A DNA stretch of 55,029 nucleotides from a virus. Lineage: Duplodnaviria; Heunggongvirae; Uroviricota; Caudoviricetes. Within the stretch, counting starts at the first letter, position 1; each line of letters begins with the position of its first letter. The translations under genes and the position numbers were made by a program. Of this stretch, positions 39,530 to 44,443 are shown in pieces. The stretch lies in IMG/VR virus record IMGVR_UViG_2859793810_000007; one strand, 5' to 3'. The notes beneath the pieces were generated by a model that was not told the origin of the DNA, ran no database searches, and saw nothing but the letters and a program-made list of their open reading frames with translations.

Positions 39530-40294
39530 ATGGCAAAACCGGACTGGGAGGCCATCGAATCGGCATACCGGGCCGGAGTCCTTAGCCTCCGTGATATAGG
39601 CGAGAAATACGGCGTTACAGAAGGGGCTATCAGGAAGAGGGCCAAAAAGCTTGATTGGGCACGCAGTGGCGGTACGCAGGTTTGCAAAAATGGTACGCAA
39701 AAAAGGAAAGTGCGTACCAGCAGAAAGCCTGCCATTACTGGCCTTACACAAAAAAGTACGCAACTAAAAACAGAATCTACACCGGATACGAAACCGATAC
39801 GCGGAATGCGTACCGATCCCCCGACTAACCCATTCCAACCCGGTAACCAGCAGGCATTAAAACACGGTGGTTATGCCCGTCGCCTTCTGCTCAAAGATGA
39901 GGTGATAGAGGACGCTAAAGCGTTGACGCTCGAGGACGAATTATTTCGCCTTCGTGCTAACAACCTTGTCGCTGCAGAGAATATTGGTCGGTGGTTGGTG
40001 TCGCTGGAAGATGCTAATGGGGACCAGGAAAGGAAGATGCTGATTGAAAATATCAGCGCCGCCGAGAAAGCAATGATGCGCAATACAGTTCGTATTGAGT
40101 CCATCGTTGGCACGCTTGCGACGGTAGGAAAAATATTTGCTGATACAGCCTACCGCAAGGCCGCCACTGATAAGGTGTCTCTGGAGGCTGATCGTCTTCG
40201 CCGTGATGCAGGTATTGATGATGGCAATGGAGAGCGTGACCTCAATGACTTCTACTCTGACATCCAAACCGACGCTGAATCCGGCTTTACGTAG
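39530..40294 (+). CDS. terminase small subunit-like protein (N-terminal HTH)
   Basis: 254 aa; HTH LSLRDIGEKYGVTEGAIRKRAKK; overlaps start of the terminase large subunit. Confidence 0.65.
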   Translation: MAKPDWEAIESAYRAGVLSLRDIGEKYGVTEGAIRKRAKKLDWARSGGTQVCKNGTQKRKVRTSRKPAITGLTQKSTQLKTESTPDTKPIRGMRTDPPTNPFQPGNQQALKHGGYARRLLLKDEVIEDAKALTLEDELFRLRANNLVAAENIGRWLVSLEDANGDQERKMLIENISAAEKAMMRNTVRIESIVGTLATVGKIFADTAYRKAATDKVSLEADRLRRDAGIDDGNGERDLNDFYSDIQTDAESGFT

Positions 40295-41003
40295 TTTCTG
40301 GACTATGCGGGCACGTAACAAAGTGCTTTATGGTGGTCGGTCATCGTCAAAATCATGGGATGCCGCTGGCATTGCCATATTTCTGTCGAATAAATACACC
40401 CTGCGTTTTTGTTGTGCCCGTCAGATCCAGAATAAAATCGAAGAGTCGGTGTATACCCTGCTCAAAATTCAGATAGACAGGTTTGGTCTGCGGCACCGTT
40501 TCCGTATTCTGAACAACAAAATCATTAACCGGGTTACTGGCTCGGAATTTGTTTTTTATGGATTATGGCGCAACATCGAAGAAATTAAGTCACTGGAGGG
40601 GATCGATATGTTGTGGCTGGAAGAAGCCCACGCACTGACGGAATACCAGTGGAAAATTCTGGAGCCAACGATCCGTAAAGAGGGTTCGGAATGCTGGTTC
40701 ATATTCAACCCCGGACTTGTTACTGATTTCGTCTGGCGCAACTTCGTTGTTGATCCGCCCGAAGGCACTCTCATCCGCAAAATTAACTATGACGAAAATC
40801 CGTTTCTGTCTGACACCATGCTTAAGGTTATCGACGCGGCGCGACGCCGTGATCCGGATGGTTTTAAACATGTGTATGAGGGCGTTCCGGAGTCTGATGA
40901 TGATGCGGCAATTAGACTGGCCCCCTGAATCTCCAGACAACCAGTATCACTTATTTAAGTGATAGTCTTAATACTAGTTTTTAGACTAGTCATTGGAGAA
41001 CAG

Positions 41004-41369
41004 ATGATTGATGTCTTAGGGCCGGAGAAACGCAGACGGCGTACCACACAGGAAAAGATCGCAATTGTTCAGCAGAGCTTTGAACCGGGGATGACGGTCT
41101 CCCTCGTTGCCCGGCAACATGGTGTAGCAGCCAGCCAGTTATTTCTCTGGCGTAAGCAATACCAGGAAGGAAGTCTTACTGCTGTGGCCGCCGGAGAACA
41201 GGTTGTTCCTGCCTCTGAACTTGCTGCCGCCATGAAGCAGATTAAAGAACTCCAGCGCCTGCTCGGCAAGAAAACGATGGAAAATGAACTCCTCAAAGAA
41301 GCCGTTGAATATGGACGGGCAAAAAAGTGGATAGCGCACGCGCCCTTATTGCCCGGGGATGGGGAGTAA
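41004..41369 (+). CDS. insC: IS2 OrfA (InsC)
   Basis: [41 protein letters not shown]... Confidence 0.85.
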
Positions 41370-42232
41370 GCTTAGTCAGCCGTTGTCTCCGGGTGTCGCG
41401 TGCGCAGTTGCACGTCATTCTCAGACGAACCGATGACTGGATGGATGGCCGCCGCAGTCGTCACACTGATGATACGGATGTGCTTCTCCGTATACACCAT
41501 GTTATCGGAGAGCTGCCCACGTATGGTTATCGTCGGGTATGGGCGCTGCTTCGCAGACAGGCAGAACTTGATGGTATGCCTGCGATCAATGCCAAACGTG
41601 TTTACCGGCTCATGCGCCAGAATGCGCTGTTGCTTGAGCGAAAACCTGCTGTACCGCCATCGAAACGGGCACATACAGGCAGAGTGGCCGTGAAAGAAAG
41701 CAATCAGCGATGGTGCTCTGACGGGTTCGAGTTCTGCTGTGATAACGGAGAGAGACTGCGTGTCACGTTCGCGCTGGACTGCTGTGATCGTGAGGCACTG
41801 CACTGGGCGGGGACTACCGGCGGCTTCAACAGTGAAACAGTACAGGACGTCATGCTGGGAGCGGTGGAACGCCGCTTCGGCAACGATCTTCCGTCGTCTC
41901 CAGTGGAGTGGCTGACGGATAATGGTTCATGCTACCGGGCTAATGAAACACGCCAGTTCGCCCGGATGTTGGGACTTGAACCGAAGAACACGGCGGTGCG
42001 GAGTCCGGAGAGTAACGGAATAGCAGAGAGCTTCGTGAAAACGATAAAGCGTGACTACATCAGTATCATGCCCAAACCAGACGGGTTAACGGCAGCAAAG
42101 AACCTTGCAGAGGCGTTCGAGCATTATAACGAATGGCATCCGCATAGTGCGCTGGGTTATCGCTCGCCACGGGAATATCTGCGGCAGCGGGCTTGTAATG
42201 GGTTAAGTGATAACAGATGTCTGGAAATATAG
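41327..42232 (+). CDS. insD: IS2 OrfB (InsD) transposase
   Basis: 301-aa DDE integrase-type ORF overlapping orfA. Confidence 0.85.
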
Positions 42233-42976
42233 GGGCAAATCCAGCAATCATCAAACTGTCTTGGATAGAAGCCGCAGTGGATGCGCACAAAACGTTAAAT
42301 TTCGAACCCAGTGGAAGAAAGCGTATTGGCTTTGACGTGGCTGACAGTGGTACAGATAAGTGCGCTAACGTTTACCGTCACGGATCCGTTGTTTTCTGGG
42401 CCGACGAATGGAAGGCCAAAGAAGATGAATTACTGAAGAGCTGCCAGCGTACTTATCAGGCGGCGCTGGAGCGTGAAGCAGATATTGTTTACGACTCTAT
42501 CGGTGTTGGTGCGTCTGCCGGTGCTAAATTCTCTGAAATTAACGCTGACCGGAAGAGCGAGAACGCATACGCGCGACGTGTGAATTACCAGAGGTTTAAC
42601 GCCGGTGCTGGTGTGCATGAGCCAGATGACGAGTACAACGGCATCCCCAACAAAGACTTTTTCGCAAATCTTAAGGCTCAGGCATGGTGGCTGACCGTTT
42701 CAGAAATACGTTTAACGCCATTAACAACGGAGAACAGTATCCTGTGGATGAGCTGATCAGCATAGATTCTCGTTGTCCGTTGCTTGAAAAGCTGAAACTG
42801 GAACTGACAACACCTCATCGTGATTTCGACCGTAACGGACGTGTGATGGTCGAAAGTAAAAAAGACCTCGCAAAACGCGAGATACCGTCACCAAACGTTG
42901 CTGATGCATTCATTATGGCCTTCGCGCCAATCGATACATCGCTGGATATCTGGGAACAGCTGGGGAGACAGGCCTG

Positions 42977-44443
42977 ATGGCACGAAACAAACAAGCCCTG
43001 CGGCGAACTGTGCAGGCCACAGCTGATGGTTATGAGAATTTTATTGCCCGAGTAGGGATGCAGACACCTAACCAGCACTCAGCATCCACCTACCGGGCTA
43101 ATTTCACCAGTCGTAACCGCATGCTGGTGGAATGGTCCTATCGTTCATCCTGGATCATCGGCGAAGCAGTCGATGCTATCCCGGATGATATGACCCGCAA
43201 AGGCATTCGCATCACTTCGGAAATTGATGCAAAAGATCGTGGCATTCTCGAATCACAACTGGATGAGTTGCAAATCTGGGATGCGCTGAATGACGTGCTG
43301 AAATGGTCGCGCCTCTACGGCGGCGCGGTGGGTTTCATCATGATTGAGGGGCAGGCACCAATGACCCCGCTGCGACCCGAAACCATCGGTAAGGGCAAGT
43401 TTAAGGGGATTCTCCCGCTCGACCGCTGGATGGTCGACCCGGCACTGACCCGCCGCATTAAAGATATGGGGCCGGACCTGGGTAAACCTGAGTTTTACGA
43501 TGTGGTGACCACAGCAACGGGAATTCCTGCCTGGCGCATTCATCACAGTCGCCTGATTCGCTTTGATGGCGTCACGTTGCCATTTCAGCAGAAGATGACC
43601 GAGAACGAATGGGGAATGTCGGTTGTAGAGCGTATCTGGGATCGTCTTACCGCGTTCGACAGCGCTACTGTCGGCGCGGCGCAGCTGGTCTACAAGGCGC
43701 ATTTGCGTACCTACAGCGTGGAGAAGCTACGCGAGCTTATCGCACTTGGTGGTCCTGCGTATGAAGCGTTGCTGAAGAATATCGACCTGATTCGACAGTT
43801 CCAGAGTAATGAAGGCATGACGCTCATGGACTCGCGGGATAAGTTTGAAACCCATCAGTACAGCTTCAGTGGTCTGGATGACATCCTTTCGCAGTTTGCA
43901 GAACAGATTAGTGGCGCTGTTGGTATCCCACTGGTGCGGTTGTTCGGACAGTCCCCGAAAGGATTTTCTACCGGTGATGCAGACCTTGCCAACTATTACG
44001 ATCGCATCAGTTCGTTGCAGGAGAGGCGTTTACGTCTTCCGGTGCGGCGGATACTGGACATCATGCATCGTTCGGAACTTGGCAAGCCGCTGCCGGACGA
44101 TTTCACGTTTGAGTTTAACCCGCTCTGGCAAATGTCTGATGTCGATCGCTCAACGGTGGCGTTAAACACCACCAACGCAATCAGTACGGCGCTGGGTGAT
44201 GGTCTGATGACACTGAAAGCCGCTATGACTGATTTGCGAGAAAATTCTGACGTAACCGGCATAGGGGCATCCATTACCAACGAGGACATCGAGAATGCCG
44301 AAGATGAAGCGCCGCCCGGCATCGGCGAACCTGATGACGAACCGCAGGAGCCGTCAGGCGGAAATCCGGTATCGAACCAGCCTACGCAGGATAGCGAGGG
44401 CGGTCGGAGACATCGTAAATGGTCGCTACGATGGTTCAAATGA
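42977..44443 (+). CDS. phage portal protein
   Basis: 488 aa following the terminase gene; acidic C-terminus; portal position in a head module. Confidence 0.65.
   Translation: MARNKQALRRTVQATADGYENFIARVGMQTPNQHSASTYRANFTSRNRMLVEWSYRSSWIIGEAVDAIPDDMTRKGIRITSEIDAKDRGILESQLDELQIWDALNDVLKWSRLYGGAVGFIMIEGQAPMTPLRPETIGKGKFKGILPLDRWMVDPALTRRIKDMGPDLGKPEFYDVVTTATGIPAWRIHHSRLIRFDGVTLPFQQKMTENEWGMSVVERIWDRLTAFDSATVGAAQLVYKAHLRTYSVEKLRELIALGGPAYEALLKNIDLIRQFQSNEGMTLMDSRDKFETHQYSFSGLDDILSQFAEQISGAVGIPLVRLFGQSPKGFSTGDADLANYYDRISSLQERRLRLPVRRILDIMHRSELGKPLPDDFTFEFNPLWQMSDVDRSTVALNTTNAISTALGDGLMTLKAAMTDLRENSDVTGIGASITNEDIENAEDEAPPGIGEPDDEPQEPSGGNPVSNQPTQDSEGGRRHRKWSLRWFK

Follow-up and report, generated by a model that had tools for sequence, protein, structure and literature searches.

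A predicted terminase pseudogene in a Shigella flexneri prophage remnant, split by IS2 and frameshifted at a tandem heptamer

How did a phage terminase gene come to lie in three pieces, and do the pieces still serve any purpose? The locus that raises this question is the gene for the large terminase subunit (terL) in a 55,029-nucleotide stretch of DNA from a virus of the Caudoviricetes (IMG/VR virus record IMGVR_UViG_2859793810_000007). The whole of this stretch is called the window here. A sequence-only reading had described terL as cut by a clean insertion of the insertion sequence (IS) IS2, with the pentamer GCAAT duplicated at its ends, and as frameshifted once more further downstream. The analysis presented here bears this description out. 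In our judgement it is nearly certain that the locus is a dead terL of the Sf6 gp2-like PBSX family in a Shigella flexneri prophage remnant, which would have received IS2 with a 5-bp duplication and then lost one heptamer by slippage, in a neutral and stepwise decay. The coordinates of the features are collected in Table 1.

When IS2 and one of the two pentamers were excised in silico, the remaining 1397 nucleotides (nt) aligned as one continuous terminase gene, which was the check that the sequence-only reading had proposed. The joint reads ...DDDAAIIKLSWIEAAVD... and the rebuilt sequence over it ...ESDDDAAIIKLSWIEAAVD.... The rebuilt gene has a collinear counterpart in Escherichia coli, an intact 1404-nt prophage gene with the annotation PBSX family phage terminase large subunit. 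The best match, in NZ_CP065613.1 (4304733-4306136), has 99.3% nucleotide identity, with 3 substitutions and a single 7-nt gap as the only indel. Full-length matches to the reconstruction were found by megablast in 118 of 5,426 complete E. coli genomes; in the matches listed, the gene is a 'PBSX family phage terminase large subunit' by annotation and spans 1404 nt. The terL start at 40245 is the annotated start of the orthologue. The ATPase and nuclease halves rejoin in frame, as had been claimed, and the joint is identical to that of the uninterrupted E. coli gene. The orthologue holds a single GCAAT at this point, and because of this we read the two pentamers of the window as a true target-site duplication of IS2. 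Once both lesions are repaired, a full-length open reading frame (ORF) of 467 amino acids (aa) is obtained, and only V122M and A431D distinguish its product from the E. coli protein.

Both pentamers are present as described, with 1331 bp between them. The insert begins TAGACTGGCCCCCTGAATC and finishes ...GGGGCAAATCCA. Over its full length it shows 100% identity to elements on several S. flexneri plasmids that carry the annotation 'IS3-like element IS2 family transposase', which fixes the ends of the element without recourse to the pentamers. The chance of a 5-nt match at ends fixed in this way is 4^-5, about 0.001. The two IS2 genes pass the NCBIfam models over their full length: TnpA scores 275.8 bits (cut-off 229; positions 1-121 of 121) and TnpB scores 724.9 bits (cut-off 597; positions 1-301 of 301), and the 301-aa product carries the Pfam rve domain. 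The ends of the element, 42 nt on the left and 41 nt on the right, are imperfect inverted repeats that align with one gap. The copy looks complete. Duplications of 5 bp are typical of IS2, which transposes along a copy-out-paste-in route via a minicircle (PMC6350997).

The terminase identity of the two halves is supported by profile, structure and orthologue matches. The 227-aa product encoded by the 5' ORF of the window matches Pfam Terminase_3 (PF04466; 7.9e-39, 133.7 bits) over residues 24-213. The intact E. coli orthologue, which is 2 residues off the repaired protein, matches the same family (3.9e-38, 131.5 bits; cut-off 23.2) and also TIGR01547 (142.6 bits; cut-off 105). The Terminase_3C score of 20.1 bits is under its cut-off of 26.7, and the two 3' terL fragments gave no Pfam match. 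The nuclease half does match the PDB chains 8DKR (1.4e-65) and 5C10 (3.6e-24). Against the crystal structure of Sf6 gp2 (4IDH), the orthologue aligns over residues 10-449 with E = 1.8e-78. Its Walker A motif GGRSSSKS (residues 30-37) aligns with GGRGSGKS of Sf6, and its Walker B motif LWLEE (residues 123-127) aligns with CWVEE. The nuclease active site of Sf6 gp2 consists of the triad D244/D296/D444, plus N441 and K428 (PMC4678813). If a 20-residue tag in the PDB chain is assumed, Asp252, Asp305 and Asp444 of the orthologue align with the triad, and Asn441 and Lys429 align with N441 and K428.

These alignments also locate the insertion within the protein. IS2 entered at Ala222/Ile223, the Terminase_3 match stops at residue 213, and the nuclease-domain PDB chains start to align at 212-213, which places the element between the predicted ATPase and nuclease domains. 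The 5' ORF runs into IS2 and meets a stop at 40926-40928; the 227-aa product ends ...AAIRLAP, with 223 native residues followed by RLAP. The middle part of terL is read within a 179-aa ORF (42217-42756) that begins inside the right end of IS2, and it includes Asp252 and Asp305. The 3' part would encode Lys429, Asn441 and Asp444. In the first step of the history that we propose, IS2 would have transposed into codons 222/223, in the ATPase-nuclease linker, by the copy-out-paste-in mechanism through a minicircle known for this element. The target GCAAT would have been duplicated, leaving an ATPase-only fragment of 227 aa and a nuclease half without its partner.

The second lesion is the 7-nt gap. 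Pairwise alignment showed that the intact gene reads GGCA TGGTGGC TGGTGGC TGACC, and the window retains one TGGTGGC. In codons, the intact sequence is GCA TGG TGG CTG GTG GCT GAC (A W W L V A D), and the window has GCA TGG TGG CTG ACC.... The frame switch that had been noticed near 42690, from KAQAWWL to (V)ADRFRNTF, lies at this gap and is the loss of one unit of the tandem heptamer. The loss of one unit from a tandem repeat is a classic outcome of replication slippage. Slippage between the two heptamer units probably caused the 7-bp deletion here. The reading frame is lost past Leu371, and a stop follows 20 codons on, at 42754-42756, where the ORF 42217-42756 ends. The original C-terminus (ADRFRNTF...NVADAFIMA...GRQA*) continues in the -1 frame (frame-2 translation) up to 42977. 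Because the frame is lost after Leu371, Lys429, Asn441 and Asp444 can no longer be encoded, and the nuclease would for this reason be dead even without IS2. Where the sequence-only reading had counted at least two inactivating lesions, we find exactly two disabling lesions in terL. No continuous ORF covers both terminase domains, owing to the IS2 split and the 7-bp frameshift. Judged from sequence, the gene is a pseudogene of the PBSX / Terminase_3 (Sf6 gp2-like) family and not a working member, and neither packaging nor DNA-cleavage activity is predicted for it.

The same lesions are found in other assemblies. We fetched eight chromosomal places (L003-L010) from a public assembly collection, whose index places the exact 227-aa product in 924 blocks. 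The left IS2 junction and the single heptamer are present in all eight, and the right junction is present in seven, L009 being rearranged there. Both lesions are present in L003-L008, L010-L012, L015 and L016, and every other public assembly examined in which the two sites are covered has them. Positions 30245-50928 of the window are 100% identical to CP026788.1 (L006). A search for the junction pattern among species-representative genomes returned two finds, 'Shigella flexneri strain SFBU1023' and 'Escherichia coli strain ECMA0423', both with the same lesions; the latter is the same contig as L010 (CP178302.1). The terL::IS2 junction occurred in 0 of the 5,426 complete E. coli genomes. The 7-bp deletion occurred in 0 of the 41 E. 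coli genomes that matched 106 nt around the site, all 41 having the 7-nt-longer form. Among the public names of the exact fragments is 'putative bacteriophage protein [Shigella flexneri 2a str. 301]'. These results indicate that the lesions are genuine and heritable, that they are confined to the S. flexneri lineage, and that they are already in the public record.

The order of the two events is suggested by two IMG/VR contigs, L020 and L021, that were returned by scanning for the right IS2 junction. L020 has both IS2 junctions, a double heptamer and an intact 17-bp stretch in the cement gene that is discussed below. It is collinear with 39469-49187 of the window at 99.5% and has the same downstream IS truncation. 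L021 has the right IS2 junction and the double heptamer. The contigs with this intermediate allele are IMG/VR 2529293240_000021 and 2526164652_000004. Because these contigs carry IS2 at the same site and yet keep both heptamers, IS2 would have come first and the deletion later. The simplest history is that the insertion preceded small deletions in an already dead gene. In its second step, later and in the lineage of the window, one unit of TGGTGGC-TGGTGGC would have been lost by replication slippage, shifting the frame after Leu371 and removing Lys429, Asn441 and Asp444 of the nuclease site. Both lesions would then be neutral steps in the decay of a prophage no longer able to make particles, with no function for either.

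The opposite order, in which the 7-bp deletion came first and IS2 entered a dead gene, or a history in which two IS2-bearing lineages gained the element independently at the same site, is improbable. Among the interrupted genes of S. flexneri, 24% have both an IS and another inactivating mutation (PMC7373316, Hawkey et al. 2020), a pattern that the insertion-first history fits; where the two coexist, either could be the earlier (PMC7373316). The IS2-only alleles of L020 and L021, with the same junction and, in L020, the same downstream IS truncation, argue against both alternatives. The viral contigs, metagenome contigs and E. coli genomes searched yielded no allele that combines an empty site with a single heptamer. 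For the metagenome contigs we used a gapped pattern with an allowed spacing of 400-425 nt (the real spacing is 410 nt), which gave 0 matches.

Some points weigh against the explanation as a whole. The order presumes that the IS2 of L020 and L021 and that of the window share one insertion, by descent. This single origin is probable, with the IS2 site, the orientation and the downstream IS truncation identical between these contigs and the window; an independent IS2 insertion, or a re-duplication of the heptamer, is formally conceivable. The loss of terL function is a prediction from sequence, and the count of 8 nonsynonymous to 3 synonymous substitutions, given below, is too small to be more than suggestive. 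We found no evidence here that contradicts the explanation by stepwise decay.

Could the fragments have been kept for a function? The 227-aa fragment might hinder the packaging of Sf6/P22-like phages, or IS2 might drive the downstream head genes. Hundreds of contigs carry the 227-aa product unchanged, and the protein is homologous to the terminase of Shigella phage Sf6. However, clonal descent within S. flexneri would give the same conservation. The fragment also acquired V122M (40608 G>A), just before Walker B. This change is missing in E. coli and in the IS2-only contig L020, so it would be later than the IS2 insertion. Damage has gone on across the module as well. The gene for the homologue of the structural cement protein Gp24 (46305-46661) has lost 17 bp (TCCGGTATACGTTGTCG) at 46651/46652 compared with E. 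coli and L020, which shortens its product from 168 aa to 118 aa and is a third small lesion of the head-gene module. Twelve substitutions are specific to the lineage of the window, as compared with both E. coli and L020. They comprise 8 nonsynonymous and 3 synonymous changes and 1 in the frameshifted region of the cement gene. The 8:3 ratio is about what unconstrained sequence would give; with so small a sample, it is suggestive of drift. This nonsynonymous excess, the further deletions and the additional damage at the locus in L009 and L021 all speak against a retained function. As for expression driven by IS2, a promoter and terminator scan of 39300-43200 gave counts at or below shuffle expectation, and on the + strand it found no promoter-like site that points from the right end of IS2 to the portal gene; for these reasons the idea is unsupported. 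A functional role for the fragments is thus very improbable, and we give the same slight credence to its more specific form, in which the 227-aa fragment is expressed as a dominant-negative decoy that poisons the packaging motor of superinfecting Sf6/P22-like phages and is retained by selection, not merely clonally. Residual function is probably absent.

Other strains show their own changes at this locus. In L009 (12000-13094), the last 433 bp of IS2 recur as a partial tandem copy, and 71 bp of terL are gone at the right junction. In L021 (2040-2100), foreign sequence (…TTAAT) lies to the left of IS2, and the 5' half of terL is gone.

It is hardly credible that an error of sequencing or assembly produced the frame switch near 42690 and that IS2 is the only lesion of terL. 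Short indels in repeats are a common type of error, and the site is a short tandem repeat; but a 7-nt loss is not a typical homopolymer error, and the single heptamer is shared by L003-L012 and by five IMG/VR contigs. The double heptamer of L020 and L021 shows that the site behaves as a heritable polymorphism. The lesions recur across public assemblies, which argues that they are not sequencing errors, and the deletion does so in many independent ones; the artefact reading of the frameshift was rejected on this ground. The idea that the element marks an IS2-IS2 recombination joint between two unrelated terminase fragments has practically no chance of being right and was ruled out for the window by the perfect empty-site reconstruction: IS-mediated rearrangements do occur elsewhere (the inversion at 36509-38219, and an arrangement of IS elements 5' of terS that differs in other strains), and in L021 the left flank of the same IS2 is foreign, but in the window the same pentamer stands on both flanks, and the flanks rebuild one gene. 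This gene matches a single E. coli gene at 99.3% identity, and no base is missing or extra at the joint.

Table 1. Features of the terL locus, of the inserted IS2 and of the adjoining genes (positions in the window).
Feature	Position	Strand	Remarks
terS-position ORF, 254 aa	39530-40294	+	End overlaps the terL start
terL, 5' part	40245-40912	+	Codons 1-222 and 2 nt of codon 223; predicted ATPase domain
Left target-site duplication GCAAT	40908-40912		Single copy in the orthologue
Apparently complete IS2, 1331 bp	40913-42243	+	Transposase genes co-directional with terL
IS2 left inverted repeat, 42 nt	40913-40954		Gapped alignment
IS2 orfA	41004-41369	+	NCBIfam IS2 TnpA
IS2 A6G slippery site AAAAAAG (-1)	41321-41327	+	Sequence
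IS2 orfB	41327-42232	+	NCBIfam IS2 TnpB; overlaps orfA
IS2 right inverted repeat, 41 nt	42203-42243		Gapped alignment
Right target-site duplication GCAAT	42244-42248		Sequence reading
terL, middle part	42249-42691	+	Codons 223-371, in the original frame once IS2 is removed; first half of the predicted nuclease domain
Lone TGGTGGC heptamer	42685-42691	+	Marks the 7-bp deletion
terL, 3' part	42692-42977	+	Out of frame (-1); codons 374-467 and stop
Portal gene, 488 aa, intact ORF	42977-44443	+	Directly 3' of terL; Phage_portal_3, 3.3e-106 (Pfam)

The terL pieces lie in a remnant of what is a far more complete prophage in E. coli, where it extends from the integrase to the tail fibres. The window keeps the part from terS to the major capsid gene (39469-47987). 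The ORF in the position of the small terminase subunit gene (terS) gave no Pfam match. It aligns collinearly, at 99.7%, with WP_001118113.1, a gene of the E. coli prophage that stands directly 5' of terL there, and its position suggests a terS role. Homology to the E. coli prophage ends at 47987, at a 1265-bp IS3-family element just past the major capsid gene, so all the tail genes of this prophage are missing from the window. A 1250-bp IS3-family element adjoins 39469, upstream of the terS-position ORF.

Both of these IS3-family elements are repeated in the window. The element of about 1265 bp has three copies, at 47987-49251, at 24864-26128 and, inverted, at 35272-36508; the inverted copy aligns in two pieces. 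The 1250-bp element has two direct copies (99.9%), at 31985-33234 and 38219-39468. In L003, L005 and L008, which are other S. flexneri, the second of these copies is inverted, and a segment of about 980 bp with Rz1 and DedA lies between the IS and terS. This segment is absent from that position in the window. The difference points to a strain-specific, IS-mediated rearrangement upstream of terS, shared with CP026788.1. With respect to the order in the E. coli prophage, the segment 36509-38219 is inverted; it holds a DUF1133-type gene, a cluster of transfer RNA (tRNA) genes and a piece of a holin gene. Its tRNA cluster (Gly-TCC, Thr-TGT, Arg-TCT and one with a CAT anticodon) is duplicated at 28267-28577 in the neighbouring prophage (region 28266-28676). 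The CAT-anticodon tRNA is assigned to Met by ARAGORN and to Ile in the E. coli record.

Further features lie outside this remnant. At 1060-2823 (+), a 587-aa ORF with type III secretion leucine-rich repeat and NEL E3-ligase domains (an IpaH-type effector) adjoins prophage tail-fibre genes; it is consistent with a Shigella or enteroinvasive E. coli chromosome. A second, lambda-like prophage occupies about 3000-29000 (-), and its long ORFs for head and tail proteins match Pfam domains in full. Its large terminase is of the gpA type (22675-24642) and its major capsid protein of the E type; an S49 protease, a tape-measure protein and a J-type tip protein are also among the products. The IS copy at 24864-26128 separates the terminase region of this prophage from the lysis genes and may have disrupted the small-terminase region. 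A 619-aa Toprim primase-like ORF at 33201-35060 (-), whose 3' end runs into the IS at 33234, gave weak matches to Hint (24.5 bits, short of its cut-off, 32.1) and to LAGLIDADG (24.1 bits; cut-off 22.5), and it may carry an intein remnant. The 544-aa Mu-type transposase ORF at 49249-50883 (-) has an incomplete match to the C-terminal domain (positions 1-50 of 61), and its 3' end adjoins the IS that finishes at 49251. It probably represents a truncated MuA from a different phage remnant.

The terL lesions fall in well-described categories, namely IS2, Sf6 gp2-like terminases and IS-driven pseudogenisation in Shigella. The pseudogene sequence has been public since the first S. flexneri genomes. 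A literature search for this specific terL disruption returned nothing specific. The present analysis adds what kind of frameshift this is, in which order the two events fell and how the decay extends through the module. The ORFs 40245-40928, 42217-42756 and 42684-42977 should be annotated as one IS2-interrupted terL pseudogene; in public records the pieces now stand apart, under the names 'bacteriophage protein' or 'terL-like'. Lineages could be marked by the IS2 junction and by the state of the heptamer. Prophage decay in Shigella is neatly illustrated here as a stepwise process, with an IS insertion followed by small deletions and neutral drift. Beyond correct annotation its importance is small, as gene decay of this kind is ordinary and well documented.

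Among known systems, the closest relative of the gene is the orthologue WP_038341124.1, a 'PBSX family phage terminase large subunit' of E. coli prophages, to which it is 99.3% identical in nucleotides after repair, with 2 of 467 residues different. Klebsiella phages such as GZ7 and ST405-OXA48phi1.2 carry relatives of WP_038341124.1 that are about 81% identical. The window and the E. coli prophage have the terS-position gene, the portal gene, a MuF-like protein, the scaffold, the cement protein and the major capsid protein as common neighbours. The resemblance to Sf6 gp2 (4IDH; nuclease domain 5C12 and related structures) lies in the Walker A and B motifs, the Asp triad and the Asn and Lys residues, all conserved in the repaired protein, and in the placement of the gene between the terS-position gene and the portal gene. 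Unlike Sf6 gp2, the terL of the window is a diverged homologue, split by IS2 and frameshifted, from which no full-length protein would be possible. The survey of Hawkey et al. 2020 (PMC7373316) does not discuss the terL gene, and the word 'prophage' occurs 0 times in its text. From the Shigella IS2 pseudogenes described there, the terL disruption differs in nothing of substance: it has in common with them the same element, the 5-bp duplication, a disrupted coding sequence, fixation in a lineage and a second inactivating mutation alongside.

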